DNA of 64,000 nucleotides from assembly GCA_027459325.1 (NCBI GenBank), contig DAIDIO010000002.1, forward strand, positions 1,951-65,950. Direction: 5' to 3'. The DNA comes from Candidatus Saccharimonadota bacterium. Lineage in GTDB: Bacteria > Patescibacteriota > Saccharimonadia > Saccharimonadales > UBA4665. A model generated the notes under the pieces. It searched no databases. It was not told where the DNA came from and was given only the letters and a program-made list of their open reading frames with translations. The position numbers were made by a program, and so were the translations under genes. Shown piece by piece: positions 2,700 to 55,047 of the stretch (position 1 is its first letter; the number at the start of each line of letters is the position of its first letter).

Positions 2700-3190
2700 T
2701 CATTGCTATTATAATTATTGCCGCGCTTATAGTAGCTATATGTTTTTCAGCTGTTTTGCTATTTGGTGCGCCATATTTGCCGACATTAGCACCGCAAGTT
2801 CAGGCAGCGCTTAAACTCGCGGATTTAAAGCCTAATCAAAGCTTGATTGAGCTAGGTTGCGGAGACGGCCGGGTGTTAATAGCTGCTGCCGAAGCGGGGC
2901 TGAGCGTTACAGGTTATGAAATTAACCCTATTTTAGCCTTAATTGCTTGGTTGAGAACCAGGAAGTATGGCGGTAAAGTTAAAGTAGAATGGGGCAACTT
3001 CTGGCATAAACAGTGGCCTGAAACAGATGCGGTATTTGTATTTTTATTAGACAAATATATGAAAAGATTGGATACATTATGTATTCAAAATACATCAAGG
3101 CCGTTGAAGCTGGTTAGCTTTGCTTTTAAAGTTCCGGATCGAAAACCGGTAAAGGTCCTTAACGGGGTATATCTGTATGTCTACAGGTAG
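2696..3190 (+). CDS. class I SAM-dependent methyltransferase with N-terminal TM helix
   Basis: Motif I is ELGCGDGRVL. The start overlaps the xseB stop in an ATGA. Confidence 0.65.
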   Translation: MIIAIIIIAALIVAICFSAVLLFGAPYLPTLAPQVQAALKLADLKPNQSLIELGCGDGRVLIAAAEAGLSVTGYEINPILALIAWLRTRKYGGKVKVEWGNFWHKQWPETDAVFVFLLDKYMKRLDTLCIQNTSRPLKLVSFAFKVPDRKPVKVLNGVYLYVYR

Positions 3191-3229
3191 ATATTGCTTG
3201 AGCAAGTATGTTTAGGGTAAGATTAGCCT

Positions 3230-3880
3230 ATGATTAAACATAACCAGGAAGGCGCTGCCAGTAGCGGTTTAATTATTGCGAGCTTGAGCGTGCTGTGCCT
3301 TCTTGCTCTGGTGTTTGGAGGATGGGCTTATTCCGGCAGGCAACACTACAAGAATGATAGCCAAGGCCTGATTAGTGCCGCTGTTAAAACTGCAGTAGCG
3401 CAATCGGTTAGTGCTCAAAATGCCCAGTTTGCCCAAGCCGAACAATTTCCTTTAAGTACCTATAATGGCCCCGCGGCTTACGGGAGTATGATCATTCAGT
3501 ACCCCAAAAACTGGAGCGGTGAAGTAGATAACGGTGGAAATAATGCCTTTGAGGCCTTTTTTGCGCCAGGAGTATTACCGTCTGTAACTGACCAAAGTTC
3601 AATTTTTGCATTAACAGTTCAAGTACTTAATCAGGCATATACTGACGTTGTTTCGGGAATTCAATCTTCACCGGGTGTTACCATTAGCGCATACGCTCTA
3701 CCAAAAGTTAAAAACTTAGTAGGCGTTGAAGTCAGTGGCCCGATCGGTCCCAATCAAACGCAGCAAACGATGATTATTCTTCCGCTTAGGACTAATACTC
3801 TCGAGATAGCGACTGACGGCAGTCAGAATTTGAGTGCTTTTAACAGTATAATTTTGCCTAATTTCAGCTTTTCGCCATAG
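3230..3880 (+). CDS. hypothetical membrane-anchored/secreted protein
   Basis: Single N-terminal TM helix followed by a polar domain. No motif recognised. Confidence 0.45.
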   Translation: MIKHNQEGAASSGLIIASLSVLCLLALVFGGWAYSGRQHYKNDSQGLISAAVKTAVAQSVSAQNAQFAQAEQFPLSTYNGPAAYGSMIIQYPKNWSGEVDNGGNNAFEAFFAPGVLPSVTDQSSIFALTVQVLNQAYTDVVSGIQSSPGVTISAYALPKVKNLVGVEVSGPIGPNQTQQTMIILPLRTNTLEIATDGSQNLSAFNSIILPNFSFSP

Positions 3881-3946
3881 ATCTTTTGGTCTACAATAGA
3901 AATTAGTAAGCGAAGGGTAGAGCGGCCTAATAAAGCCGTATGTGAT

Positions 3947-4666
3947 ATGGGCACTCAAGAACAAACATTTCAGATACTGTCTCAAGAATTGTTACTGGTT
4001 GTTGCCGAGGAATTAAAACTGCCATTTATGCAAATAGCACGACTTGCGGAGCAGGCCGAGCTATCCGGTCAAAAACTTAATACTGCCTTGATTGAATCAA
4101 CCGCCGACTCGGCTTTAAAGCTAATAGATAACTATATTTTAGGAGTAAGGCTGAGTCTAAGCCCGGAGCGGCTGGGACTGGAAAATGTATCAGTGTCTTC
4201 GGTGCTCTATGATACCCGCGAAGAACTATATTCCTATGCTAAAAATTACGGTGTCGATTTAGATCTCAATATTGCCGGTAAGTACGGCCCAGTCTCTGCA
4301 AATAAAAAGGGCCTGGAAGCGGCGTTAGTCAGCCTTGGCGCGGCATTAATAGAGGCATTACCGGCTATCGGCACATGCCAGTTGAGGCTAAAGCTAGCAA
4401 CCCATCGCAGCCGTTACGGTATTGTTGCGGGCGTCTACGCCGATACTAAACAAGTGAGTTTAAGTGCCTTGCAAGCCGGACGAAAACTTTCCATTTCGAG
4501 TCGGCAACCGCTGGTAAATTTAAGCCATTCCAGCGGGGCAGGCATCTTTGTAGCCGACTCTATTCTAAAAGCCATGAATCTTAACTTAACAGTTAGTCGT
4601 CACGATAAATGGTATGGCATAGCAACTATATTGCCACTTAGTCAACAACTACAACTAATAACATGA
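3947..4666 (+). CDS. soluble histidine-kinase-like protein with degenerate H-box (His replaced by Glu)
   Basis: AEELKLPF aligns with the SHE(L/M)RTP H-boxes of the two bona fide kinases in this window. C-terminal G-box-like segments (GAGIFVADSIL) are present. The stop overlaps the start of the downstream receiver gene (ATGA). Confidence 0.45.
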   Translation: MGTQEQTFQILSQELLLVVAEELKLPFMQIARLAEQAELSGQKLNTALIESTADSALKLIDNYILGVRLSLSPERLGLENVSVSSVLYDTREELYSYAKNYGVDLDLNIAGKYGPVSANKKGLEAALVSLGAALIEALPAIGTCQLRLKLATHRSRYGIVAGVYADTKQVSLSALQAGRKLSISSRQPLVNLSHSSGAGIFVADSILKAMNLNLTVSRHDKWYGIATILPLSQQLQLIT

Positions 4667-5049
4667 CGAAGCTCTTGCTAATAGAACCTGATCGAATGCT
4701 GGCCAGCATTTACTTTGATGCTTTAAGCGCAGCTGGCTGTGAGGTTATTTATGCAGCAGGCGCGCAGCTGGCAATTTTAGTTGCCGATCAGATACAGCCT
4801 GACCTAATTGTTCTTGAATTACAACTCATAGAGCATTCCGGCATAGAGTTTCTGTATGAGCTTAGGTCTTACGCCGACTGGCAAAAGGTGCCGGTAATAA
4901 TAAATTCAGTTGTTCCACCCAGGGAGTTCAATAATAGCTATAAGCTATTAAAAAAGGAGCTAGGAGTAGTAGACTATCTATATAAGCCCAGCAGTACACT
5001 TAAGACACTAGTCGCGGCAGTTAATAAGGTTAGCCTGAGCAAAGTGTGA
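4663..5049 (+). CDS. stand-alone receiver (REC) domain protein with phospho-acceptor Asp replaced by Glu
   Basis: CheY-like pattern: LLLIEPD, DLIVLELQL (Glu where Asp57 is expected), VIINS and YLYKP. Confidence 0.7.
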   Translation: MTKLLLIEPDRMLASIYFDALSAAGCEVIYAAGAQLAILVADQIQPDLIVLELQLIEHSGIEFLYELRSYADWQKVPVIINSVVPPREFNNSYKLLKKELGVVDYLYKPSSTLKTLVAAVNKVSLSKV

Positions 5050-5735
5050 AAACTTTAATCACCGAGGGTATAGTATTAAACCGGATCAATTACGGCGAGG
5101 CCGACAGGATTTTGACGATACTTACTCGTGATAGTGGCAAATTAAGGTTAATGGCCAAAGGGGTGCGGAGAGTAAAGTCTAAGCTAGCTGGCGGCATAGA
5201 GCTGTTTAGTGTTAGCGAGCTTAGCTATATTAGCGGTCGAAATGATATCGGCACCTTAGTTTCCAGTCGCCTTAAAACCTACTATAGCCATATTGTTGAA
5301 GATATGGACCGCGTCCAGTTAGGTTATGAATTAATTAAGTTATTAAATAAAACTACGGAAGACAATTATGAGCCCAGCTACTTTGAATTACTTGAGCAAA
5401 CTTTCATGGCGCTGAATGATTTATCGCTCGATCTAAATTTGGTTAAAACCTGGTTTAAAGCCCAGCTACTCCGCGATGCTGGGCATATGCCAAACCTGAC
5501 TGCTGATCGAGAAGGGAATAAACTTAAAGAAGAAAATAATTATACTTTTGATGTTGAGCATATGGGTTTCGTAGCAAATAAATCAGGAAGCTACACAGCC
5601 AATCATATTAAGCTGCTCAGACTAATCTTTAGTGCTAATACCCCAGCTGTATTAAGCAGGGTTAAATCGGTAGAGTCCTTGCTTACAAATTTGATGCCGC
5701 TGATAAATACTATGTATGATGACCATATTTCCTGA
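5046..5735 (+). CDS. recO: DNA repair protein RecO
   Basis: N-terminal OB-fold pattern (GIVL....YGE.D.I...LT...G) and typical length. Confidence 0.8.
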   Translation: MKTLITEGIVLNRINYGEADRILTILTRDSGKLRLMAKGVRRVKSKLAGGIELFSVSELSYISGRNDIGTLVSSRLKTYYSHIVEDMDRVQLGYELIKLLNKTTEDNYEPSYFELLEQTFMALNDLSLDLNLVKTWFKAQLLRDAGHMPNLTADREGNKLKEENNYTFDVEHMGFVANKSGSYTANHIKLLRLIFSANTPAVLSRVKSVESLLTNLMPLINTMYDDHIS

Positions 5736-5800
5736 AAAGTAGCGATCAAGCTAAAAGTGTGGTATTTTATACCCATAAATTTCTTTAGGAAGAATTAAAT

Positions 5801-6055
5801 ATGTCTATTGCGATACGTTCAGATTACCAAAAGGATGGCCGTGCGGGGGCAGAGATTTGGGAACACCGCTTAACCAATATTAATACGCTACTTGAAATAG
5901 GCTTTTTGACAGTCAATGATCACGTTGGCTTTCTAAACGAAAGACCAGAGGTTTTTAATGCTATCGTAGGTTATAACCTGGCTAGTCATATAGAAATGCA
6001 TTTGGGTGCTAAAGCCTCCGATTTTGCTAGCCGCGAAGCTGTTGCAAGCCGCTAA
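5801..6055 (+). CDS. hypothetical protein
   Basis: 84-aa ORF in its own intergenic slot. No motif recognised. Confidence 0.35.
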   Translation: MSIAIRSDYQKDGRAGAEIWEHRLTNINTLLEIGFLTVNDHVGFLNERPEVFNAIVGYNLASHIEMHLGAKASDFASREAVASR

Positions 6056-6093
6056 TAATTGCCGTCTCAACACCTCTGCTATAATGTGGGTTA

Positions 6094-10582: not shown

Positions 10583-11686
10583 ATGTATACCTACCTGGTT
10601 GAAGAAAGTACAAAAATTACCCCCTCAACATTACTTTTAACACTTAGTCGCGACGAAAGCGAAAGACCCTTGGCATTCCAGCCCGGCCAATACGCCGCCA
10701 TCAGTTATGAGAAAAGAGGTAAACCTTCAGCTGCTCGGTGTTTTTCTATAGTCAGTTCACCGACAGACCAACATACCCTACAGTTTAGTATGCGTGTCCG
10801 GGGTAAGTTCACTAATGCGTTATCAAAGCTGAAACAGGGAGATGTTGTTGATGTCTATGGTCCTTTTGGAGGTTTTGTTTTTGATATGACGGTCGAAAAG
10901 AGGGCTGTATTTATTGCGGGCGGTATCGGCATTACGCCGTTTATGAGCATACTACGGTATCTTAGCGCCCTTAATGCAAGTAATGAAGTTACATTAATAT
11001 ATAGTTGCGCAACTCAAGATGATATACCATTTTTTGATGAATTAACCGCTATTGAGAAAGCACATCCGCATATTCAGGTGGTGTTCGTGATCGGAAAAGG
11101 TCCAACCGATAAACTTATACCCGAAAAGGTCCGGACCGGACATATTACACCTGAGCTTATTGATGAAATTACTAAGCAACACTATCAAGACCTGAGGTTC
11201 TTTTTATGTGGTCCGCCTATGTTTATGAAGCCTATGATTAAGGCCTTAGTGAAACGGGGAGCCAACAAGAGCGACATCTTAACCGAGGCATTTACTCAGT
11301 CCTCGCCAAAACAAACCAGCATATTACGTAGCTGGCCGGCCAATGTCTATGCTCTCGGTGCAATTAGTTTCGTATTCGGTAGTTTTTTAGTAATGGTAAG
11401 CGATTTACTTCAGGCTTTACCGCCGACAACAACCCTAAAACCAACAAAAAATGCACCATATCTGGTTACTAATGCCCGGGGCCAGCAGCTTGACCAGTTA
11501 GTTAATAGCATTCCGCCTTCACCGGATCTTATAACGGTACCGACGACACCTACGGCTAGTCAGTCCGCAAGTAGCGCTAGCACCAATACGGTTACTACCC
11601 AAACACAAACAATCGCACCCATCTATTCGGCACCAATTACTGTAGCTCCAACCTGTCATACCACGCCGTCGGGAAGGTGTATCTAG
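10583..11686 (+). CDS. FNR-like FAD/NAD(P)H oxidoreductase with C-terminal TM helix and Thr/Pro/Ser-rich tail
   Basis: Contains RCFS (RxYS-type FAD motif), GGIGITP (NAD(P)-binding) and LCGPP. A TM helix (VYALGAISFVFGSFLVMV) follows, then a T/P/S-rich tail ending CHTTPSGRC. Confidence 0.75.
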   Translation: MYTYLVEESTKITPSTLLLTLSRDESERPLAFQPGQYAAISYEKRGKPSAARCFSIVSSPTDQHTLQFSMRVRGKFTNALSKLKQGDVVDVYGPFGGFVFDMTVEKRAVFIAGGIGITPFMSILRYLSALNASNEVTLIYSCATQDDIPFFDELTAIEKAHPHIQVVFVIGKGPTDKLIPEKVRTGHITPELIDEITKQHYQDLRFFLCGPPMFMKPMIKALVKRGANKSDILTEAFTQSSPKQTSILRSWPANVYALGAISFVFGSFLVMVSDLLQALPPTTTLKPTKNAPYLVTNARGQQLDQLVNSIPPSPDLITVPTTPTASQSASSASTNTVTTQTQTIAPIYSAPITVAPTCHTTPSGRCI

Positions 11687-43551: not shown

Positions 43552-45048
43552 ATGGACTATTTAGATCCGAAGCAAGAATTAAAGCAACGAGTTACTCTGC
43601 TAATCGGCTATGTTCTGGTGGCGGTGGCGATTGCCTTCGCGGCTCTTGTTTTGTTATATCAGGCGTACGGCTTCGGTTTCGGCAAAAACGGATCAGTTAT
43701 CCAGAACGGTTTGCTGTTTTTCTCGTCCCAGCCCAACCCTGCCAATATCTACATTAATGGTAAATTGGCGGCCAACCCTACTAATACCAGGCTGTTTGAG
43801 CCGTCCGGTATTTACCAGGTTGAGCTAACAAGAGCTGGATATCGTAACTGGTACCGTCGTATTACTGTTGACGGTGGCAGTGTTGAGCATTTTGATTACC
43901 CGCTGCTTATACCAAATAAACTTATAACTACTAAAATAAACAGTTATGCTGCCGCTCCTGGCATGATGACCGAGAGTTTGAACCAGAAGTATATCCTGAT
44001 TGAAGAACCTGGTAGCCTGACCAATTTTGACTTATATGATTTATCTAACCCTGCCAAACCGGTGGTTACGAGTTTGGTTTTACCTAGTAATGTCTTGACC
44101 CAAAGTGTTACGGGCGGCGCTCAGAGCTTAACTTTTGTAGCCTGGGCTGACGACAATCAACACGTCCTACTCAAGCATCTGTATGATAATAAAAGCGAAT
44201 ACATATTGCTGGACATTGCTGATATGACACAGTCGGCGAATCTAAACACTACCTTTAACGTAAATCCGCCAGACTTAAGCCTAGATAACATTAAATATAA
44301 TAACTATTACTTTTTTGACCCGTCTACCGGAGTCGTCAGCACCGCCAGTTTAAGCGACCCTTCAACCGTTACTCCGGTCTTAAGTCATGTACTAGCCTTT
44401 CACTCATATGATACAAATGAGATTCTTTATGCAACCGATCAAGGCGCTAAACCAGGTAAAGTGTTAATTAAGCTGTACAGCCCGTCGGCTACCTATACCA
44501 TCACCAGCCTGCCAGTAAGCAGTGGTACTTACTTATTAAATATGGCAACCTATAACGGTACCTTATATGCGGCAGTTGGTTCCACCTCTGGACGTTTTGT
44601 TTACATCTATCAGGATCCGATCGGCCAATTGCAGTCGGCTCCCGGACAAAACTTAGCTCCATCCTGGGTGCTTCACGTTAATAACCCTAACTACTTAAGT
44701 TTCTCGGACAACGCCCAGTTCATAATGACCGAAAATAACAATAATTATGCGGTTTATGATATTCAGAATTCACTAGGCTATTTATATACCGATCAAACTA
44801 AACCGCTGGATCCGCCGCAGGTCCATGCCACTTGGATGGACGGAGACCGATTGATCTATGTCAGTGGCGGTAAGATTGATATCCAGGACTACGATAACAA
44901 TAACCAGCAGACTTTAGTAAGCGCTTCTCCAGATTATGTCCCGGCCTTTTCTTCAAACTACAAGTACATGTTTTCGCTGTCGCCGGCTGCCGGCTCGACC
45001 AGCTATAACCTTAACTCCACGCCCTTAATGATCCCCTCAGACCTTTAA
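43552..45048 (+). CDS. membrane-anchored PEGA-domain protein with large beta-rich ectodomain
   Basis: TM helix followed by a PEGA-like segment (ANIYINGK......GIYQVELTRAGYRNW). Confidence 0.55.
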   Translation: MDYLDPKQELKQRVTLLIGYVLVAVAIAFAALVLLYQAYGFGFGKNGSVIQNGLLFFSSQPNPANIYINGKLAANPTNTRLFEPSGIYQVELTRAGYRNWYRRITVDGGSVEHFDYPLLIPNKLITTKINSYAAAPGMMTESLNQKYILIEEPGSLTNFDLYDLSNPAKPVVTSLVLPSNVLTQSVTGGAQSLTFVAWADDNQHVLLKHLYDNKSEYILLDIADMTQSANLNTTFNVNPPDLSLDNIKYNNYYFFDPSTGVVSTASLSDPSTVTPVLSHVLAFHSYDTNEILYATDQGAKPGKVLIKLYSPSATYTITSLPVSSGTYLLNMATYNGTLYAAVGSTSGRFVYIYQDPIGQLQSAPGQNLAPSWVLHVNNPNYLSFSDNAQFIMTENNNNYAVYDIQNSLGYLYTDQTKPLDPPQVHATWMDGDRLIYVSGGKIDIQDYDNNNQQTLVSASPDYVPAFSSNYKYMFSLSPAAGSTSYNLNSTPLMIPSDL

Positions 45049-46339
45049 AGCGCCTGTCGACTCTGAAGATTAAGTAATAAGCGGCGGCTATTACAGCAAC
45101 TAAAGAGATTAATTTACCCCAGAAACTACCAATAAACCGGCTCCACAGGCTAGGGCCATTACCCGGCAAGCTGGTAGTAGATGGTCCGCTCGAAATGCTA
45201 GCAGCCGGCGTAGCATTGCCTGTCGGGCTTGGGCTAATCTGCTGGCCGACGACAACCAAACGGTTAATACTGGTTCCCGGAGGGTCGCAGGTAATTAATG
45301 TTGCGGTAGCTGTTTGACCCGGAACGGCATTAAGTACGCTGACATCTGAAGGCGGAACTATGGTTTTACTAATAACTTTATAGACGTAAACCTTGTCGTT
45401 AAAAGTCAGGTAAAAGGTGTCGCCGTTAACCAGTGTGTGCAGCAACACAAAGGCAAACTTATATTTGCCTGGGTTAAAGATGTTATTACTGCTGTGGCCA
45501 AAGAAAGCAGCATTACCGTTCTGACCAGGCAGTACCGTAGTTGGATAGTGTACTACCCCATCTTCCAGATCATTTTCGATGGCTGCTTCGCTCGTCGAAG
45601 TTTCACTATAAGTTACCGGAATTTCGACATTAATCTTAGGAATGATTACTTCAGGAGTCGGCGTCGGGGCCACACCACCGCCATTTAATATGATTGGCGT
45701 GTCAGCACTGACGCTGCTGGGCCTAATAAAAGGCGTAATGATTAACTGGTTGAAGAAGCTGAACATAAAGATTATTACCACAAAGGTCCCCATGCCCAAA
45801 CCAAAAGCTAATGACTGCAGATTATGCTTAGCCTTAATTTTGCCGCCGGCTGTGACCTTATCTCTTATAGCTCCACTGATTTCTTTAGGGGTGCGTTTGT
45901 CTGGAATAGTCTTAGCTCGTTTGGGCCTGGCAGCCTGATGTTTATGTTCGGCTATAAGTGCTGGCCGGTTGGCAAGAGCGGTTGGGTTGACTGGTGATTG
46001 GCCGGTTAGGGCTGACTGGCTATCGTAAAACTCCTGCCAGACTTCATGCTTCTCGTTATCGCTTAGAGATGAATAATAGTTGTGCCACTCGGTTTGGATC
46101 TCGGCCATGGTTTTTCCGGACCGGCTGAGTTCGGACATAAACTGTTGGTGCTTGCTGCGTGGACGGCTGTTTCTGGCTTCAATTATTTCAGCATTAGCAC
46201 TGGGCTCATCTTCATAGAGTCTTGCGATTTTATGGCGAATCATCTTAGCAGCATCGGTTTCATTCTCTAGCTCACCCGAAAAGACTCTGACCTGGTCATT
46301 ATGAATATTTTCTTCTTGGTAACGATTATGCTTTGCCAT
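45011..46339 (-). CDS. sortase-domain transpeptidase with long N-terminal cytoplasmic extension
   Basis: Contains FFGHSS (His) and TLITCDP (TLxTC catalytic Cys). One TM helix precedes the domain and one follows it. Confidence 0.72.
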   Translation of the reverse strand: MAKHNRYQEENIHNDQVRVFSGELENETDAAKMIRHKIARLYEDEPSANAEIIEARNSRPRSKHQQFMSELSRSGKTMAEIQTEWHNYYSSLSDNEKHEVWQEFYDSQSALTGQSPVNPTALANRPALIAEHKHQAARPKRAKTIPDKRTPKEISGAIRDKVTAGGKIKAKHNLQSLAFGLGMGTFVVIIFMFSFFNQLIITPFIRPSSVSADTPIILNGGGVAPTPTPEVIIPKINVEIPVTYSETSTSEAAIENDLEDGVVHYPTTVLPGQNGNAAFFGHSSNNIFNPGKYKFAFVLLHTLVNGDTFYLTFNDKVYVYKVISKTIVPPSDVSVLNAVPGQTATATLITCDPPGTSINRLVVVGQQISPSPTGNATPAASISSGPSTTSLPGNGPSLWSRFIGSFWGKLISLVAVIAAAYYLIFRVDRRFKGLRGSLRAWS

Positions 46340-46434
46340 AGTAATTAATATAGTAACTATATAACCTGGATCTAACTAATTTAAGTATAGTACAATTACA
46401 CCTTAGAGTTGTCTAAGAATCCTTACAATAATAA

Positions 46435-46522
46435 GGGCGAGTGGTGAAATTGGTATACACGCTAGACTCAAAATCTTGTGAGCTTAACGCTCGTGAGGGT
46501 TCAAGTCCCTCCTCGCCCACCA
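46435..46522 (+). tRNA. tRNA-Leu (anticodon CAA), long variable arm, CCA encoded
   Basis: Acceptor GGGCGAG/CTCGCCC, anticodon loop CTCAAAA, variable arm GAGCTTAACGCTC and T-arm GAGGGTTCAAGTCCCTC. Confidence 0.87.
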
Positions 46523-46545
46523 ATTTATTCTGTTCATTTTAAGTA

Positions 46546-47049
46546 TTACCAGGGGCATAAAGTAGTTTCGGTATCAGGGATTATCTCCTGACTGCCGTAA
46601 ATAAATGCATGGCTTGTCCAGAAAGCTATGCTGTCTGAATTGGCTTCTTTTGACTGCGGAAAAGGCTCATCATCATTGAATTTTCCTATCCAGGCGCTAG
46701 ATAATGTATAACTCGCGTCTTTATTTGGTACGAGGTGAACGGCAATGGTCTGGCAAAGGTCCCCGATCCTATTCTTTACAAATGGCACTAGGCCGTCATT
46801 TTCCCTGTTCTTTCGAACTGCGTAAACAATTTCATCTTTTTTGATTACTTCTACAACATCACACCGACCAATAACCCGGTGCCGGTCAAAGTGGTCAGCT
46901 ACCTCTTGCCCGGTTAATTCCAGGCTCGTTATAACTTCTTGCAGCAGCGGTGCTAGTTCGGGGTTGTCGTGAAGATGCGTAGCGGCATGGGAGTGAACTT
47001 CATCGTAGAATACCTTTATATGGTTTTTGGAAGTTGCTATTACCTTCAT
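46546..47049 (-). CDS. hypothetical protein
   Basis: 167 aa, lying 11 nt downstream of the multi-wHTH ORF. No motif recognised. Confidence 0.45.
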   Translation of the reverse strand: MKVIATSKNHIKVFYDEVHSHAATHLHDNPELAPLLQEVITSLELTGQEVADHFDRHRVIGRCDVVEVIKKDEIVYAVRKNRENDGLVPFVKNRIGDLCQTIAVHLVPNKDASYTLSSAWIGKFNDDEPFPQSKEANSDSIAFWTSHAFIYGSQEIIPDTETTLCPW

Positions 47050-47060
47050 ATTTTAATTAA

Positions 47061-48500
47061 TTAAGCTGTAGCTTCAAGGAAGTCTTTCGCTGGAACATCA
47101 TTATTTTCTATTTGCGATTTAAGTTCTCTCAAGCGGCCTATTTCTGCGTCAAAACCGGTTCTGCTGAGTTCAAAGAATTGCATATCAGCATATCGTTGGT
47201 TAAGATAGCTCTTCACATGGTAGTTGCCGCTAATTGATGCGAGCTCGCGACATTCGCCTAAAAGTTTATCTGCTTCAGCCGCTTCGTCTTCGCCGATTAC
47301 TTCTTCTAGCTCTCTTAACTCGTGCATTGCCCTTAACGCAAACTTTAGCCCCTCTCTAGTTAGTCTTAAATTGGTTAAAGTGTCTTTTAGTATACTTCCA
47401 TCTTTTCTGATTATTGCTTCTAAATACTTCTTGTTTTTTCTAAGCTCATAAATGCGCCGGGTAGCTGTATCTTCGGTAATATCTAATGCCCGGGCTATAT
47501 CAGGGATTATACCTTGGGTGTTATTTGGATGGGCTATCCAGTCGCTATAGAGAGGAAGGCTTGATTCGGCTGTAGTTTCATCGAAGTATATTCCGCTCAT
47601 AAACATTACATGCTCAATAATTCTAAGGCCGGTAGTCGCTCTTATTGGTTTCTCTTTCGGATCTTTAAGATAACTATGATAGGTTTTTAAAAGTGCAATA
47701 CGCTTTTCACCTGCTGGTGTTAAGACAATTACCTTTCGATCAAAGTCTACTGATACATAGCCATTTTTTTCCATGCTACCTAGTGATTTAGCATAAGAGT
47801 CATAACTAATATCGGCAGCTAAGCGCTTCCTGACTTCGGCAGCCGGGCTATCGCCTGTAAAGTATATAACGCCATTACATAGTTCTAATTCAGCAAATAT
47901 TTCTAGTATTCGGTAACCGGTTCGCTTAACAATTTTGACGTTGGCTTCATGCTGTATAAAATCAAGGCTGTCATCGGCTAGTAGGGGAAAGCCTTCAGGT
48001 TTAATTATCTTTTGAGGATAGGGGTATACTGGCTCATCCGTTTCCTCAATTTCATCTTTAGAAACCACTGGCGCTGATTTAGTTTGCCTGATCGTTTGCG
48101 TTGAGCGATCCATTAATATTTTTAGGGCTTCTGAGGTCAGTCGGTATCGAGGCCCACCATTCAGTGTAAGTCCGCGCTCAAGTGTACTTATAAGAAGATC
48201 TTGGAGCATTTCCGGAGATAATTTTTCTGACTCAGCCAAGCCTTTATTGGTAATCGCCTGTAGATAATTAATATAATGCTCATCGGTTTGCTTGAAGGTA
48301 CCAGCCAGTCCTATAGCCAGTAATAGTTTTATGCTTAGATCTTCTTTTGCAAAATCTGATCTTTCATAGGATTTATAAAAAAGCTTATCTTCTACCCTGA
48401 AGGTAAAATCTAATTCTCCTTCAGAAGGACGACTTTCATAGTCTAGATCAATTTCGTCTTCTAATGCCTCTTTGCGCCACTGGTTAAGTGGCGGTGTTCT
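47061..48500 (-). CDS. -1 frame portion of a multi-winged-helix orphan protein (the track ORF 47061..48239 starts at a TTG; this frame is open upstream to 48557)
   Basis: At least two MarR-like wHTH segments and a C-terminal coiled-coil. There is no ATG, GTG or TTG in the 106 open codons between the upstream in-frame stop (48558-48560) and 48239. Confidence 0.5.
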   Translation of the reverse strand, partial: RTPPLNQWRKEALEDEIDLDYESRPSEGELDFTFRVEDKLFYKSYERSDFAKEDLSIKLLLAIGLAGTFKQTDEHYINYLQAITNKGLAESEKLSPEMLQDLLISTLERGLTLNGGPRYRLTSEALKILMDRSTQTIRQTKSAPVVSKDEIEETDEPVYPYPQKIIKPEGFPLLADDSLDFIQHEANVKIVKRTGYRILEIFAELELCNGVIYFTGDSPAAEVRKRLAADISYDSYAKSLGSMEKNGYVSVDFDRKVIVLTPAGEKRIALLKTYHSYLKDPKEKPIRATTGLRIIEHVMFMSGIYFDETTAESSLPLYSDWIAHPNNTQGIIPDIARALDITEDTATRRIYELRKNKKYLEAIIRKDGSILKDTLTNLRLTREGLKFALRAMHELRELEEVIGEDEAAEADKLLGECRELASISGNYHVKSYLNQRYADMQFFELSRTGFDAEIGRLRELKSQIENNDVPAKDFLEATA

Positions 48501-49378
48501 AAAAAAGGTTTCGGTCCCGCTTTCAGTTTGGCGGCATCTTTGCCTGTGTCGCGGTATTTAGGTCCTTCCACTACTTCCATTGTTAGCTGCCTTCTAACTC
48601 GAGCTGATAATTGACGTTTAGGTTGCCCGTTAGTTACTAAACTTTCCACTTGAGGCTGTGCCGATTCTTCAGTATTAGGTTTTTCCTCAAGTACGGCTTT
48701 CAGATTATTTATAACGTCCCCGCTAATAAATTTATAAAATTTTGCTGTCAGGCGATTTACATTTAAGCTGATACTTTTTACGCGTGTTGGATTCGATTTT
48801 TGTAATTCTATTAATCCTATCCTTGCTAAATAATTTTGGGCGTTGTTCCAGTCTTTGCCCTGAAGCTGCAGAGCTTCGGTTATCACTTTGCCGCAGCTAG
48901 ACGATTCCAAAGTAAAATTGGGTTGTTTAAGAAGAAACAGAATGATGCTTTCATATCTTTTTTGTGAAGGAGATAAGATAGATTCCGCGTCTCGAGATTT
49001 ATCTGGCAGGTTAGGTGTAACTTTATCGACGATTTCTATAGTCGGCTTTACTATATGAAGTACGGGAGCGGTCGATTGTTGAGGATTAACTGATGCTTTG
49101 TCATTGATTTGCTGACTTTCATAATATGAAATCTGTGTTTGAAGTTTAACAATTTCCTCATCTCGTTCATTGAGTGCTAAGAGTGACCGCCCTAATTCCT
49201 CTTCCAAGTGGTTGATTCTTGTGGCCGGACCATCTCTCAGGCCTTCTTTAGGGGGTGAATATTTAAGCTGCCATGCCGGAGATTCAGCGGACAGTCTTAT
49301 AGAAATGTTTTCCTCACCCGACACTAAAGTGGTCGTATTATTTATTTCCCGCATATAATTAAAATAATTATATAACAT
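48461..49378 (-). CDS. zero-frame ORF (305 aa): coiled-coil plus wHTH orphan protein
   Basis: ATG start. Contains a MarR-like segment (ITEALQLQGKDWNNAQNYLARIGLIELQK). It ends 14 nt after the frameshift hairpin. Confidence 0.6.
   Translation of the reverse strand: MLYNYFNYMREINNTTTLVSGEENISIRLSAESPAWQLKYSPPKEGLRDGPATRINHLEEELGRSLLALNERDEEIVKLQTQISYYESQQINDKASVNPQQSTAPVLHIVKPTIEIVDKVTPNLPDKSRDAESILSPSQKRYESIILFLLKQPNFTLESSSCGKVITEALQLQGKDWNNAQNYLARIGLIELQKSNPTRVKSISLNVNRLTAKFYKFISGDVINNLKAVLEEKPNTEESAQPQVESLVTNGQPKRQLSARVRRQLTMEVVEGPKYRDTGKDAAKLKAGPKPFLEHRHLTSGAKRH
48475..48506 (-). promoter_or_regulatory. candidate programmed -1 ribosomal frameshift cassette
   Basis: Read on the minus strand:
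- T_TTT_TTA lies in the zero frame (48506-48500).
- A 6-nt spacer GAACAC follows (48499-48494).
- Then comes a hairpin CGCCACT/AGTGGCG with a 5-nt loop (48493-48475). Confidence 0.55.
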
Positions 49379-49478
49379 TTTTTATAAAGCAAATAAATAT
49401 TGTTAAAAAAATACAGCGAGGCAGATTTTTGCTGTATTGATTTTCCTCACTAACCTAGCTATTATTTTCATAACGCTT

Positions 49479-50306
49479 ATGTCAAAAGAGGAAACAGCGA
49501 TTAATGTCACTGAGGAAGATTCAGAGGGGCAACCTATGAATGATTCTGTTGATGAAGCTGCTGCTCAGGAAGAAATAACTCCTGCCGATAGCCAGGAATC
49601 AACTTCTGACGAAGAAGTGGCCGTTAAGTCTAGTGAGGCTCCGATTGTAAATACAGCTGAGCCGGTCCATACTCCAGAGATTGCTCCCCTAGGCATAGGT
49701 GGAAGTCAGCATCTTCTGGAATTACCGGCCTCTACCGCTAAACCAGGTATTCCCAAACTAGCCTTTCTTATTCTAGGTTTAATTATTATTGCCGTCATTA
49801 TTGTTTCCGTATCGTCCGGTTGGCATCATAAGTCAAATAAGGCAGCAGCTTTAGTTACAAGTAATAAGTGGACGACATATTCTAGTTCGGGTGGTAATTT
49901 CACAGCTTTATTTCCTACAGGTCCTACAGTCTCTCAGCAAAATGTTACTTTAAACGGCGTTTCGTATAACGAGACCACAGTGCAGTCTTCCAAGAATGAT
50001 GCTGTATATCAGGTGGTCTACACTACTCCCGAGCAGGAAGCAGATACTGACGCGACTCTCGACAAGCTGGTTCACGATACGGTTTCCAATATTCAGTCAG
50101 GCCAGCTGCTATATTCTAGCTATTTATATGTTAATGGCCATCGGACTGAGACTTTTCAAATAACCGGAGTTAGAAATGGTAACAATGTCTTTATGAAGGG
50201 TGAGTTTGTGGTAGCCGGCAATATTCAGTATGCCCTGCTGGCGTCCCAGTACGATGCTTTTGCGCCTGATTCAGCCTATTTCCTTAGCCATTTTAGCGTT
50301 AATTAG
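49479..50306 (+). CDS. hypothetical membrane-anchored protein (acidic N-terminus, one TM, ectodomain)
   Basis: I prefer the ATG at 49479 (MSKEETA...) over the track start at 49437. Confidence 0.45.
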   Translation: MSKEETAINVTEEDSEGQPMNDSVDEAAAQEEITPADSQESTSDEEVAVKSSEAPIVNTAEPVHTPEIAPLGIGGSQHLLELPASTAKPGIPKLAFLILGLIIIAVIIVSVSSGWHHKSNKAAALVTSNKWTTYSSSGGNFTALFPTGPTVSQQNVTLNGVSYNETTVQSSKNDAVYQVVYTTPEQEADTDATLDKLVHDTVSNIQSGQLLYSSYLYVNGHRTETFQITGVRNGNNVFMKGEFVVAGNIQYALLASQYDAFAPDSAYFLSHFSVN

Positions 50307-51102
50307 CAGTATTTTGGTCTATAAGGGCGGTTGTTATGCTTGCGAGCGGCTGAGAAGGATTCTGAATCCACCAGGTAATGGCTTTAGCGGCTGTTTCGAC
50401 TCGCCAAACTGGTTTTTCGGCCTCTAGTTTTGTGCTTGTTATATTGCCACCGGCGGCTACCAAGATATTATCTGCATGCTTTACGACTAAATTTATCGGG
50501 TACTTTTCGCTAAACGTATGGAGCGTTTCTGCCAGCTTCAGTAGGTCCATATGAAATTTGAATGCTTGCGGGAAGTGTGCGCTCATAGCTAGTTTTTGCA
50601 GTTGCGCAATCGCCGTTACAATCAGAGTATTTTCTCTGTTTATAAGGCTCTCAGCTGAAGGCGTAAAGTAATCGAGAGCATCTTTAGTTACTGCTAGGGG
50701 TCCTGTGTAGTGGGCACTAAACTGCTCTAAAAATATTGCCGTTTCTGAATTACGCCCAAAATCGCCGGCCAGTAAAACGCCGTCGGCCCAGTTGCTAGCA
50801 TATAGGGCTTGATCAAGAGCCTGACGGGCGATGCTGCCGCTGGGGGTTGATGCAAGGTATTCACCGCCCACAAAAAAGCTGCTGAGGGTTTTTTGAAGAA
50901 CATCCGGCAGCATTACTCTGGCAACTCCTATGCCGGCTTGAGTAGCAGCACTGTAGGCTGTAGCGACAGCAGCAAATGATTGAATGTGGCCGCCAACTAT
51001 TAATAACTTGCCTGCCTGGTTTTTATGTTCCGGACGGCTCCAAAGTAAATCCGGAAACAGCGGTATTTTAGGGTCCTGTTTCTGCCAGTAATCTATGCCC
51101 AT
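50299..51102 (-). CDS. YjeF-C/carbohydrate-kinase-like protein, possible NAD(P)HX dehydratase
   Basis: GKLLIVGGH....A..A..AA.QAGIGV pattern. The assignment is weak. Confidence 0.4.
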   Translation of the reverse strand: MGIDYWQKQDPKIPLFPDLLWSRPEHKNQAGKLLIVGGHIQSFAAVATAYSAATQAGIGVARVMLPDVLQKTLSSFFVGGEYLASTPSGSIARQALDQALYASNWADGVLLAGDFGRNSETAIFLEQFSAHYTGPLAVTKDALDYFTPSAESLINRENTLIVTAIAQLQKLAMSAHFPQAFKFHMDLLKLAETLHTFSEKYPINLVVKHADNILVAAGGNITSTKLEAEKPVWRVETAAKAITWWIQNPSQPLASITTALIDQNTAN

Positions 51103-51108
51103 ACAACT

Positions 51109-51909
51109 TTATAGGTCCAAGGTAATTGAAATGGGGCAATGATCAGAGCCAAGAATGTCGGCCTGAATATCAGCCGCCTTAATTTTGTCTTTAAGTGCTT
51201 TGCTAGCCAGAAAGTAGTCAATCCGCCAGCCGACGTTTCTGGCGCGGGCATTAGCAAAGTGTGACCACCACGTATAATGGCCATTGCCTCTGGTAAATAT
51301 TCTAAAGCTATCAATAAAGCCGCTGTCGATGTAGGCACTAAGTCCGGCGCGTTCTTCGTCGGTAAAGCCCTTCTTGCCAATATTGGGTTTAGGGTTTGCC
51401 AGATCATCTTCGGTGTGGGCAACATTAAGATCGCCGCAGAAAACCACTGGCTTCGATTTATTCAAATGTTTGACATACGTAAGAAATGCCGGATCCCAAT
51501 GTTTATGCCTGAGTTCTAACCGGCTTAAATCATCCTTGGCGTTCGGGGTATAAACCGTTACTAGCCAAAAGCTGTCAAACTCAGCGGTTAGTACCCTACC
51601 CTCTTTATTAGCATCACCATAGATGTCGCCGGTTACGTTATACTGTTTAATAACATCTTCAGGAAAACCATCAATGACCTGCAAGGGCTTAATTTTTGAA
51701 AGTATGCCAGTGCCGCTGTAGCCTGGTTTGTCAGCTGGATACCAGAAAGCGTTATAGCCTTGCGTGTCAATGTCAATTTGGTCGGCTTTGGCTTTAATTT
51801 CTTGCAAACAGATTATATCGGGCTTATGTTTATCGATGAATGGCTGCCATAACCCCTTACGGTTGACCGCCCTAATACCGTTGACATTCCAGGAATAAAT
51901 CTTAATCAT
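51109..51909 (-). CDS. xth: exodeoxyribonuclease III
   Basis: Contains SWNVNGIRA, LQEIK and GSDHCPI motifs. Confidence 0.92.
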   Translation of the reverse strand: MIKIYSWNVNGIRAVNRKGLWQPFIDKHKPDIICLQEIKAKADQIDIDTQGYNAFWYPADKPGYSGTGILSKIKPLQVIDGFPEDVIKQYNVTGDIYGDANKEGRVLTAEFDSFWLVTVYTPNAKDDLSRLELRHKHWDPAFLTYVKHLNKSKPVVFCGDLNVAHTEDDLANPKPNIGKKGFTDEERAGLSAYIDSGFIDSFRIFTRGNGHYTWWSHFANARARNVGWRIDYFLASKALKDKIKAADIQADILGSDHCPISITLDL

Positions 51910-51961
51910 ATCTTAAAAAGTATAGTCTTTCGCCTTGTCTTTTGCTAGACTGGTTGGTTAG

Positions 51962-52678
51962 ATGGCAGAAGTTAAGTACCTCAGAGTTTTACTTAAGCTG
52001 TCCGGTGAACAATTATCCGGTCGCTATGAATTTGGCGTTGATCCGGAAATTGCTACTTTTTTGGCAGAGGAAGTTAAAAAGGTTGTATCAACCGGCTGCC
52101 AGGTAGTTTTAATTGTTGGTGGCGGCAATATGGTGCGCGGTGCGAAAATTGCCGGGCACGGAATTAAGAGAGTTACGGCCGATCAAATGGGCATGTTATC
52201 CGGACTTATGAACTCGATGGCGCTAACTGATATTTTTGAGGCGAACGGTATTAATACGCGTTGCCTGAGTAATATATTTGCCGAACAGGTGGCCGAATCC
52301 TATTCTTACCGGCGGGCCGAAAAGCATTTACAAAGCGGTCGTGTAGTTATTCTGGCCGGTGGTACTGCCAGGCCTTATGTTACTCATGATACGGCGGCAG
52401 TTAGCTTTGCACTTGAGCTGGATTGCCAGGTGGTATTGAAAGCTACCAAGCACGACGGCGTTTATGATAAAGATCCGGCTAAATTTGACGATGCTTCAAA
52501 GTTATCTAAAGTCAGCTTCCAGCAAGCCGTTGAAGATAATTCAATTATGGTTATGGACAAAGCGGCAATTGGTCTGGCGCTTGAGCAAAGTAAACCAATA
52601 ATAGTCTTCGATGTTATGAAGGCGGATAATCTTGTTAGCCTAGTCCGTGGAAAACCGATCGGCACCCTGATCGATTAG
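51962..52678 (+). CDS. pyrH: UMP kinase
   Basis: Contains LLKLSGE and IVGGGN motifs. Confidence 0.93.
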   Translation: MAEVKYLRVLLKLSGEQLSGRYEFGVDPEIATFLAEEVKKVVSTGCQVVLIVGGGNMVRGAKIAGHGIKRVTADQMGMLSGLMNSMALTDIFEANGINTRCLSNIFAEQVAESYSYRRAEKHLQSGRVVILAGGTARPYVTHDTAAVSFALELDCQVVLKATKHDGVYDKDPAKFDDASKLSKVSFQQAVEDNSIMVMDKAAIGLALEQSKPIIVFDVMKADNLVSLVRGKPIGTLID

Positions 52679-55047
52679 ATCGTCAGGTCAGATGCGTCCA
52701 GGTTTGTATTAGTTCCTGGTTTAATCTCTCCACTAAGTATTTTTTTGGCTATCGTATCCTCAACCGCTTTTTGCAGAACCCGTCGCATCGGTCGGGCGCC
52801 AAACGTCGGGTCATAGCCCTTCTCGACTATTTTATTAATCGCGGCTTCGGTCAGACTGACAGTAATATTCTGCTGGCTTAGAGTTTGATTTACTTCCTTC
52901 AGCATCAGCATTACTACGCGGGCCAGTTCGTCGGGCTGCAGCGGTCTAAAGATTACGACTTCATCGAAACGGTTGATGAGTTCTGGTTTAAAATCATTAT
53001 GCTTAATCAGTTCTTCTATAAGTTCATCATGGAAATCATTTATATTTTCATTAAATTCGATACGTTTACGAATTGACTGGGCGCCGGCGTTGGAGGTTGC
53101 AATAATAACGCAGTCTTTAAAAGATACACTTCTGCCCTGGCTGTCACTAAGGCTACCTTCGTCGAGTATTTGCAGCAATAAATTAAGTATTGACGGGTGG
53201 GCCTTTTCTATTTCGTCAAGCAGTACTACACTAAATGGTTTTTGACGGACACTTAAAATTAGACTTTTAGTTTCATTTGTGCCGTCGGACAGCAAGCGGT
53301 TTAGGTCGCTGGGGTTCTGGTATTCACTCATATCCAAACGGATCATATTATCCACTGACTTAAAGTAAGTGCTGGCTAGCGCTTTAGCTAGTTCGGTTTT
53401 ACCGACGCCGGTTGGACCTAGAAATAAGAAACTGCCAACTGGTCTGTGAGGATTAGTTACTCCTGCCCTTGCCCGTCTCAGGGCGTTAGCTACTACGCTG
53501 ACCGCCTGATCCTGATTAATCATTTGCTGGTGGATCCGGTCTTCCAGGTTCAGTAGTTCCTCGGCCTCAGCCGGATGAGCCGAGCCAACCTTTACGCCGT
53601 ACATATCTTCAACGGCGGCTTCGATACTGGCTCTCGTTATGACGCTGCCCTGGCTGTAGGGGATGCTCCGACTTAGCAGGCTTATGGCTTTGCCAGGATA
53701 GGCTTCATCGCTGGAATAACGTCCGCTCAAACTATAGCTGGCTGTTAAAGCTTCGTAGGCAATTAGTACTTTATTTTTATTCTCTAAGCCTACGGCGGTA
53801 TCCTCTAGCACATGAAGTGTATCGGTTTCGCTGAACTCATTTAGCACAATTGGCGTAATTTGTGAGGCCAAAGCCGGGTTCCTAGCCTTGATTGTTTGAA
53901 AGCCATTAGGGGTGAGAGCCAGGATGATTGGTACACTACCTGCTCCAATAATACTTTGCAGTATTTTAGCACCATCGAAACTGCCGGTGCCTTCCGTCAG
54001 GAAAGCTTCGGCATCATCAAGAAACAAGATTATATGCCCAGCGTGAGCAGCTTCATTAGCTAGGCTGATCATTATGTATTCAATGTCACCCGGCCTACGT
54101 ACATTTGACACGATGTCGGTGGCATTAATCATTACGAGTTCATGGAAAGCAAGGTCACCTGAGGTCTTTCCTTCGATAAGTCGTTGGGCTAAAGCATAGA
54201 CGTTGCTGGTTTTGCCTACCCCGACTTGCCCAATAACGGCTAGCGCACGCGAATGGTTTTCCAGGGCGGCTTCAATTGCTAAAACCCCGCGACTTGCGGT
54301 TAGCCAGCCAAAATGAATTTGGTCTTTCATAATGCTTTGGCTCAAATTAAGGCCGAATTTATTAAGCAGAGGTGTATAACCGAAGGCCCAGTCCCTGCCA
54401 ATGCCGCCAAATTTTTGTTTCTCGCGGTCACCAAATTCAACCAAGTTTCGGCCTAACCATACCGATACGGTTTTAATATCTTCCAGTTTAGACTTTTGTT
54501 CAAGCAGCAGCGCGCCTAAGTCTTTCGAATTTAACATTAAGCCGGCTGCTACAAAACCAGGTTCGATTAGCTTACTGCCTACCCCGTCAGCTATAACGGC
54601 GGCAATATCCAGGGCCGATTTAATAGTTGATTTATCTAAGTGCTCAATGCATAGGCTGACAACCTCGGAAGATAATAGCAGATGATGATAGATAAAGCCT
54701 GTTTGCCAGCTTTTTTCTAGGCTTGCCCATAATACTTGTGGCGTAAGCTCTTTTTTGGGATCAATATTCGCAAGCACTTCAGCACTCAACCGTTCAGTTA
54801 GTCCGTTACCTTTAATTGGTAAGACGTTTAAGTAGCGTTTCCACCAGATTGCCGGAACCAGGAATAATAGCGCCAATGAAATAAAGAAGAAGCTATAACG
54901 CGTATGTCCGTTGACAGCCACTATAACTGCTCCAGCTAATGCTATAAAGCCAAGGCTAAGTGAAGCAAGATAGCTTTGCCTGCTAAGCCGTTTAGCCAGG
55001 CGAGCGGTATAAGCCCGATCGGAAGCTAAATCAAGCAGTCCTACCAT
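52675..55047 (-). CDS. membrane-anchored Clp/Hsp100-family double-AAA+ ATPase
   Basis: I prefer the ATG at 55047, which overlaps the upstream stop.
- Two TM helices lie near the N-terminus.
- AAA-1 has GQVGVGKTS with Walker B FLDD.
- AAA-2 has GPTGVGKTELAKALA with Walker B LLDEIEKAH. Confidence 0.82.
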   Translation of the reverse strand: MVGLLDLASDRAYTARLAKRLSRQSYLASLSLGFIALAGAVIVAVNGHTRYSFFFISLALLFLVPAIWWKRYLNVLPIKGNGLTERLSAEVLANIDPKKELTPQVLWASLEKSWQTGFIYHHLLLSSEVVSLCIEHLDKSTIKSALDIAAVIADGVGSKLIEPGFVAAGLMLNSKDLGALLLEQKSKLEDIKTVSVWLGRNLVEFGDREKQKFGGIGRDWAFGYTPLLNKFGLNLSQSIMKDQIHFGWLTASRGVLAIEAALENHSRALAVIGQVGVGKTSNVYALAQRLIEGKTSGDLAFHELVMINATDIVSNVRRPGDIEYIMISLANEAAHAGHIILFLDDAEAFLTEGTGSFDGAKILQSIIGAGSVPIILALTPNGFQTIKARNPALASQITPIVLNEFSETDTLHVLEDTAVGLENKNKVLIAYEALTASYSLSGRYSSDEAYPGKAISLLSRSIPYSQGSVITRASIEAAVEDMYGVKVGSAHPAEAEELLNLEDRIHQQMINQDQAVSVVANALRRARAGVTNPHRPVGSFLFLGPTGVGKTELAKALASTYFKSVDNMIRLDMSEYQNPSDLNRLLSDGTNETKSLILSVRQKPFSVVLLDEIEKAHPSILNLLLQILDEGSLSDSQGRSVSFKDCVIIATSNAGAQSIRKRIEFNENINDFHDELIEELIKHNDFKPELINRFDEVVIFRPLQPDELARVVMLMLKEVNQTLSQQNITVSLTEAAINKIVEKGYDPTFGARPMRRVLQKAVEDTIAKKILSGEIKPGTNTNLDASDLTI

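Follow-up and report, generated by a model that had tools for sequence, protein, structure and literature searches.

How two adjacent open reading frames (ORFs) come to be expressed, when the second has no credible start codon of its own, is the question raised by a minus-strand locus in a 64,000-nt stretch of DNA (hereafter, the window) from a Candidatus Saccharimonadota bacterium (GenBank assembly GCA_027459325.1, contig DAIDIO010000002.1, positions 1,951 to 65,950). In the source annotation each ORF stands as an unnamed protein of its own, 297 aa and 392 aa long. An original prediction, made from the letters of the window alone, proposed instead that they are joined by a frameshift, and the analysis reported here indicates that they very probably constitute one gene that is expressed as two proteins by canonical −1 programmed ribosomal frameshifting. 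Four observations carry this reading, namely the anatomy of the signal, its conservation with covariation at eight loci, the lack of independent initiation for the second ORF, and relatives in which the two halves are fused in frame. Frameshifting in this gene family was previously undescribed. The zero-frame part of the gene is referred to as the N-module and the −1-frame part as the C-module. The features of the locus are as follows.

47061 to 49354, minus strand: whole recoded gene with a zero-frame N-module and a −1-frame C-module, predicted product of about 764 aa (from the translations and the alignment with fused relatives)
48461 to 49354, minus strand: zero-frame ORF, short product of 297 aa
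48515 to 48520, minus strand: weak and tentative Shine-Dalgarno (SD)-like purine stretch GCGGGA, 8 nt 5′ of the heptamer
48500 to 48506, minus strand: slippery heptamer T_TTT_TTA (U_UUU_UUA) in X_XXY_YYZ phase, codons CCT TTT TTA
48494 to 48499, minus strand: 6-nt spacer GAACAC, read from the sequence
48475 to 48493, minus strand: candidate stimulatory hairpin, arms CGCCACT (48493–48487) and AGTGGCG (48481–48475), loop TAACC
48461 to 48463, minus strand: zero-frame stop TAG, 36 nt 3′ of the heptamer, which ends the short product
47061 to 48500, minus strand: −1-frame segment of 479 codons plus stop, encoding the remaining part of the linker, three winged-helix-like modules and the C-terminal helical domain
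48237 to 48239, minus strand: TTG at which ORF callers begin the "392-aa" gene, 87 codons 3′ of the heptamer

Direct reading of the minus strand across the site gives the codons AAA CCT TTT TTA GAA CAC CGC CAC TTA ACC AGT GGC GCA AAG AGG CAT TAG. The phase is set by the TAG at 48463–48461, which places the CCT codon at 48508–48506 and TTA at 48502–48500. This bears out the in-phase heptamer that had been predicted at 48506–48500, and the predicted 6-nt spacer, 7-bp hairpin (48493–48475) and TAG all lie where they had been placed. The hairpin is the predicted minimum free energy element, at −10.6 kcal/mol in the hairpin context. The z-score of the whole-region fold is unremarkable (−0.8); it is the local hairpin with its covariation, rather than stability at large, that carries the signal. 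From 48557 the −1 frame is uninterrupted as far as its stop at 47061 and contains no ATG, GTG or TTG before the TTG at 48239, again as predicted. A fusion made at the heptamer comprises 293 + 479 = 772 aa, a predicted sum that holds when counted from the ATG at 49378. That ATG is a mechanical choice, however, and the translation start is most likely the ATG at 49354, because it corresponds to M9 in the alignment with relatives and to the 297-aa gene called by the source itself. With this start, the two products would be about 297 and about 764 aa long. A clear SD sequence was not seen before either ATG (49378 or 49354). A promoter-like sequence, TTAACA-18-AAAAAT, is located at 49406–49377 on the minus strand, and a transcript start set by it would fall between the two ATGs.

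An exhaustive profile search with the C-module among 1.84 billion proteins retrieved only 83 representatives (E ≤ 1e-3) of what is a rare family, and the sole taxonomically named relative is a Candidatus Saccharimonadales metagenome-assembled genome. The short members (P0001 and P0008 to P0012) match the C-module from residue 2–10 onward, and the ORF before each of them is homologous to the window N-module (300–412 aa where complete; the one in L008 is cut by the contig end). Eight split loci were compared, namely the window (WIN), L005, L007, L008, L009/L010, L011, L012/L017 and L025, from assemblies in four data sources (NCBI, ENA, JGI and Logan). All eight carry an in-phase T_TTT_TTA, always within the same disordered linker. 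In each of them the heptamer is followed, after 5–7 nt, by a hairpin that is GC-rich (−9 to −18 kcal/mol), and the zero-frame stop, situated 12–39 nt 3′ of the heptamer, is TAG in every locus. The sites read as follows (codon before TTT, spacer, then hairpin as arm, loop and arm).

WIN: codon CCT, spacer GAACAC, CGCCACT-TAACC-AGTGGCG
L005: codon CCT, spacer GAACAC, CGCCGCG-AAACG-CGCGGCG, TAG at L005 6992–6994
L012 (= L017): codon CCT, spacer GAACAC, CGCCGCG-AAACC-CGCGGCG
L008: codon CCT, spacer GGACAC, CGCCGCG-AGACC-CGCGGCG
L011: codon CCT, spacer GAACAC, CGCCGG-CAACCAA-CCGGCG
L009 (= L010): codon CCT, spacer GAACAC plus C, GCCGG-CAAACAA-CCGGC
L007: codon GCT, spacer GCGAG, CCGCC-GATAGA-GGCGG
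L025: codon CCT, spacer GCGATGA, CCCAAGC-CTCCTAGAGA-GCTTGGG

The most distant locus, L025, whose C-module is about 25% identical to that of the window, carries a 7-bp stem of unrelated sequence in the same place. Between loci, the C-modules are from 22–26% to 57% identical, and the rate of divergence is similar for the two halves. No stop interrupts the −1 frame on its way into the C-module at any locus, and the fusions measure 772–803 aa in the six loci where a complete N-module was assembled. The interval within which a shift must occur is narrow, since the −1 frame opens only three codons 5′ of the heptamer in L008 and L012 and the zero-frame stop lies only 12 nt 3′ of it in L007; the heptamer falls within the required interval at every locus. 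The TAG is inside the hairpin loop in L007 and L025. The uniformity of this stop codon may reflect chance, shared ancestry or a terminator preference after the slip site.

Covariation was scored in an ungapped alignment of seven sequences, with L025 outside it and L007 pairing in a shifted register. Of the 7 stem pairs, 3 show compensatory double changes. Covariation in the real alignment scores 0.218, a value reached by 1 of 500 shuffled alignments (0.082 ± 0.039 in shuffles); slid registers score at most 0.109. L007 and L025 add independent hairpins of different sequence. With a strict definition of the hairpin (five consecutive Watson-Crick pairs, at least four of them GC, starting 5–8 nt 3′), one is found at 7 of 8 sites vs. 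0.45% of positions in the same genes, the eighth site being L025, which has a perfect 7-bp stem but lower GC. In these genes TTT makes up 0.71 of Phe codons, TTA 0.30 of Leu codons and CCT 0.33 of Pro codons. Even with a fixed Pro-Phe-Leu peptide, the expectation for the heptamer is about 0.07 per lineage, and it was observed in 8 of 8. Upstream, a GGAG or GAGG core lies 6–19 nt 5′ of the heptamer in five of the eight loci vs. 7% of equivalent windows (for example GGGAGG in L008 and AGGGAG in L009), suggesting that an SD-like element is likely to be a third component of the signal. Conservation of heptamer and hairpin with covarying stem positions had been named in the original prediction as a check on the proposal. 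The related loci answer it positively, as an in-phase T6A accompanied by a covarying or replaced hairpin in all eight supports a programmed −1 frameshift.

The same homopolymer could act during transcription. RNA polymerase would then add one U on the T6 run, and the resulting 7-U mRNAs would be read in frame into the C-module, one inserted nucleotide being enough to give the same fusion. The run is exactly six T in all eight loci and never longer, whereas productive transcriptional slippage in bacteria is known from runs of about 8–9 or more. The phased heptamer, the invariant A after the run and the spaced, covarying hairpin are requirements of the ribosome and would be superfluous for a polymerase. 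Transcriptional slippage is therefore a very unlikely explanation of the conserved site, even though bacterial precedents for it exist (PMC5009743).

The C-module might also be made as a second, separate protein, either from an internal start or through termination-reinitiation past the TAG, with the signal being incidental or serving pausing or mRNA stability. Gene callers do annotate two genes, and in a distant relative (L027/P0025) the C-module stands alone with its own ATG, directly 3′ of a sigma-70 gene. L007 has a GTG 24 codons 3′ of the heptamer with GGAGG before it. At 6 of the 7 loci checked, however, the first ATG, GTG or TTG of the −1 frame falls 3′ of the conserved FxFxV motif, and therefore independent initiation would truncate conserved sequence; the view that the downstream ORF has no credible start of its own is upheld beyond the window. 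The positions of these start codons are non-homologous between loci. In the window, where the first start is the TTG at 48239, initiation there would remove the conserved FxFxV...KLLLAIG..TF.Q.DE.Y..YL...NKG, and the codon itself lies inside the first winged-helix module of the C-module. The −1 frame is moreover conserved as protein from the heptamer on, with RTPP directly after the site in six loci.

Fused relatives argue in the same direction. The long members P0002 (710 aa), P0006 (688 aa), P0013 (658 aa) and P0014 (663 aa) match the C-module from residue ~200–240 and carry both modules in one uninterrupted ORF. BLASTP aligned the conceptual fusion of the window with P0002 over residues 135–757 in one piece, junction included, and therefore both modules occur as one polypeptide in nature. 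Such relatives show the modules working as one chain, and production of the C-module as an independent protein is, in our judgement, highly improbable. In L006, which encodes P0006, the site reads CAT_CTT_TTA GAGTAC CGCC and the zero frame runs on via a divergent linker; this is, from its sequence, a decayed relic of the slip site.

One ORF is almost certainly not split here by a sequencing error in the homopolymer or a phase-variable indel, which had been put forward as the main alternative, or by a recent inactivating frameshift (pseudogene): homopolymers are prone to error and mutation and some relatives are single-ORF, but the same T6A stands in eight independent assemblies from four data sources and different studies, both halves are conserved and predicted to fold well, the fused relative L006 has a decayed site and not a 5-T or 7-T variant, and a mutation would not bring a covarying hairpin.

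Several points weigh against programmed −1 frameshifting. The heptamer U_UUU_UUA is not among the efficient ones in Escherichia coli, where A_AAA_AAG performs far better and, of the U-rich motifs, H_HHU_UUY is favoured (PMC4066793, PMC5009743). The eight loci are relatives and not independent draws, and binomial p-values calculated from them overstate independence and set no more than an upper bound on significance. The hairpin region is coding in two frames, as RTPP (−1 frame) and EHRR (zero frame), and selection on the protein could account for part of its conservation. The SD-like element of the window is weak, consisting only of GCGGGA (48520–48515); those of relatives are stronger (GAGG, GGAGG, AGGGAG).

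In the mechanism we propose for programmed frameshifting at this locus, whose ribosomal nature and efficiency we infer, most ribosomes would remain in the zero frame, terminate at the TAG (48463–48461) and release a protein of ~297 aa with a coiled coil, one winged helix and a basic tail. The hairpin, 6 nt past the A-site codon, would stall a fraction of ribosomes, and contact with the upstream SD-like sequence may add tension in most relatives. Peptidyl-tRNA-Phe on UUU and aminoacyl-tRNA-Leu on UUA would re-pair on UUU UUU in the −1 frame, and decoding would resume at AGA (Arg), with an expected junction of ...KPFL-RTPPLNQW.... A minor Phe variant (...KPFF/RTPP...) is possible by analogy with the HIV-1 heptamer (PMC5009743). 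The slipped ribosomes would read on to 47061, giving a protein of ~764 aa that comprises the N-module, three winged-helix modules and a helical C-terminal domain. The signal would set a fixed ratio of short to long isoforms, both of which contain the N-module.

The architecture of the products was predicted with AlphaFold2 from an alignment of 35 sequences. The model of the fusion has a mean predicted local distance difference test (pLDDT) score of 77.7, with 439 residues at or above 90 and high-confidence folds predicted for both halves. In the 772-aa numbering, the predicted elements are a long helix or coiled coil (residues 51–94), a winged-helix domain (131–231), a basic disordered linker (235–319) with the slip site within it (residue 293), three beta-hairpin/winged-helix modules (~320–430, 453–570 and 583–675) and a helical C-terminal domain (675–760). 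The tail of the short product past the slip site, EHRHLTSGAKRH, is basic. Foldseek against the PDB placed RPC62 of RNA polymerase III first (E = 5e-5) but with a TM-score of ~0.1, and single domains match MarR/TrmB-type regulators. What the predicted structure has in common with RPC62/RPC3 and with the winged helix-turn-helix (wHTH) domains of MarR/TrmB is a string of (extended) winged helices with helical or coiled-coil parts; given the global TM-score and the lack of a sequence relationship, the resemblance to RPC62 appears to be architectural only. The window protein scores 20.8 bits against Pfam HTH_45, below the cut-off of 25.5, and 8 of 11 family members match HTH_45 at E ≤ 0.01 (best 5e-7). 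No Pfam family scores above threshold, a profile search of PDB sequences gave no match, and PHROGs gave nothing meaningful for the N-module or the C-module. The description of the two ORFs as orphans is fair in view of these searches and of the Rfam result given below, and the description of their product as multi-wHTH is supported by the predicted topology together with the sub-threshold HTH_45 matches. From the fold class, we infer a DNA-binding multi-wHTH protein.

The C-terminus ends in Ala-Ala (LAA, VAA, KAA, RAA or AAA) in 7 of 11 full-length family members; the C-termini compared include those of L005, L007, L008, L009, L011, L012 and P0002. The window protein ends in ...EATA (47064–47075), that is, in ...TA and not Ala-Ala. 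The Ala-Ala end resembles that of the ssrA tag, a ClpXP recognition signal, and by this analogy it could be a degron confined to the long isoform.

In a rough neighbour-joining tree, L006 is placed inside the frameshifting clade. The fused forms P0002, P0006, P0013 and P0014 nest among frameshifting lineages and the deep branch L025 retains the frameshift signal, and for these reasons the tree suggests an ancestral frameshift with several later losses. A wider form of this scenario, in which an ancient, family-wide U_UUU_UUA frameshift in Saccharimonadales-type bacteria of the candidate phyla radiation (CPR) was repeatedly resolved to fusions, and was perhaps inverted in P0002 via A_AAA_AAG, is offered tentatively and is rather doubtful. 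In P0002 (L001 ~10650–10665) the equivalent linker has an in-phase GA_A_AAA_AAG, a dnaX-type heptamer. Ribosomes slipping into the −1 frame at this heptamer would terminate after KALEI* and make a protein of the N-module only, that is, the same isoforms in the inverse arrangement; no obvious hairpin was seen 3′ of the A_AAA_AAG in this one lineage. P0026 is very likely a ninth case of the frameshift, as a 422-aa ORF ends 9 nt before its gene. The contig of L026 ends before the slip site, and this locus stands outside the count of eight.

Genes of the sigma-70 type adjoin or lie near family members in three loci (L009 1218–2252, L011 1734–2759 and L027 1–501). They contain Sigma70_r4 with a weak HARE-HTH match, and the one in L027 is an rpoD-like C-terminus. 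Proximity to sigma-70 genes and the RPC62-like multi-wHTH fold are hints of a link to transcription.

Searches by pattern were also performed. Protein-pattern scans of genome contigs and metagenome contigs gave no match. An exact DNA pattern scan for CCTTTTTTAGAACACCGCC gave no viral match, five genome matches and seven metagenome matches. Only L017, which is the same contig as L012, is a family member, and the remaining matches were rejected as chance matches on the basis of tblastn.

Among known recoding systems, E. coli dnaX has a common layout with the gene described here. Both are chromosomal bacterial genes in which a heptamer of X_XXY_YYZ form is followed by a spacer of 6 nt and a simple stem-loop, and both yield two isoforms with a common N-terminus (tau and gamma in dnaX). 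The SD-like element that precedes the heptamer in dnaX has a candidate counterpart in five of the eight loci here. The heptamer is U_UUU_UUA in all eight loci, whereas dnaX uses A_AAA_AAG, read by tRNA-Lys. The recoded product is the long one here and the short one in dnaX, and the protein is unrelated, without DnaX or AAA+ domains. Rfam frameshift-element families, dnaX included, gave no match even at E ≤ 10. The OrfA/OrfAB genes of the IS3 family (IS911, IS3 and IS150) are similar in having a zero-frame helix-turn-helix N-protein and a longer −1 fusion, with a heptamer followed by structure that sets their ratio. In contrast, the gene in the window lacks a DDE transposase domain and terminal inverted repeats, is single-copy in varied chromosomal contexts, and has a heptamer other than A_AAA_AAG/A. 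The geometry had been likened beforehand to dnaX and IS3-type signals and the proteins to neither, a fair assessment in that no transposase, DnaX or Rfam frameshift-element match was found.

HIV-1 gag-pol has the identical U_UUU_UUA, a simple stem-loop and not a pseudoknot, and a long frameshifted product (PMC5009743), but the gene here is a cellular gene of a bacterial host, its spacer, stem and proteins are unrelated, and it has no Rfam match. The G/GT genes of phage lambda resemble it in the fixed ratio of short to extended product and in the conservation of recoding across very divergent sequences; the window gene is not a phage tail gene, and PHROG and phage-record matches are not meaningful or absent.

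Few conserved −1 frameshift genes are known in bacteria outside mobile elements and phages. Such cases include dnaX, cdd, copA and csoS2, each of them informative on the mechanism of recoding or on isoform biology. Our search found no published papers linking ribosomal frameshifting to Saccharibacteria, Patescibacteria or the candidate phyla radiation, and the present case adds an unannotated gene family from the Saccharimonadales/CPR lineage. Annotation pipelines split the gene into "hypothetical proteins" of 297 aa and a truncated 392 aa. With a heptamer that is weak in E. coli, the family offers a natural test of slippery-site rules across bacteria. If the heptamer is efficient in its hosts, lineage-specific decoding would be implied, for example a differently modified or balanced tRNA-Leu(UAA) or tRNA-Phe in reduced genomes. 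The presence of frameshifting, fused and stand-alone versions in one family gives a handle on why the ratio of short to long isoform is selected. If the family-wide scenario is true, the gene would encode the two isoforms of a multi-winged-helix DNA-binding system, with their stoichiometry built in through recoding.

The window has a G+C content of ~43% and is a fragment of a cellular chromosome, on a contig of 103,323 bp. Genes near the locus encode GluRS, UMP kinase, a Clp-type ATPase and a sortase, together with three tRNAs. Megablast of positions 44000–53000 against phage records gave no match. A 167-aa ORF (46546–47049, minus strand; PHROG 23674, unknown function) directly follows the frameshift gene, and tRNA-Leu(CAA) (46435–46522, plus strand) lies 24 nt from this ORF. 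On the other flank, the ORF at 49437–50306 (plus strand) weakly matches a "Sie-like" PHROG. The window yielded neither an integrase nor an att-like repeat, and no neighbours conserved across the related loci were seen. An integrated island at the tRNA-Leu is unsupported, given the absence of an integrase, of a tRNA-end repeat and of conserved neighbours across loci. Identity as an IS element was rejected, as flanking inverted repeats, looked for around the gene, were not found and a transposase domain is absent. A degraded mobile element around the window gene is possible but unsupported.

A neighbour of the family member in L005 also weakly matches a "Sie-like" PHROG. This locus encodes a large serine recombinase (3–1475), that is, a serine integrase, a DnaG-type zinc-ribbon protein (2793–3386) and a small-terminase-like DNA-binding protein (5251–5841). 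L006 encodes an NgoFVII-like restriction enzyme, a LexA/S24-methylase fusion and Vsr (2883–6092). The contexts of L005 and L006 are apparently mobile or defence-like; the other relatives reside in ordinary chromosomal neighbourhoods.

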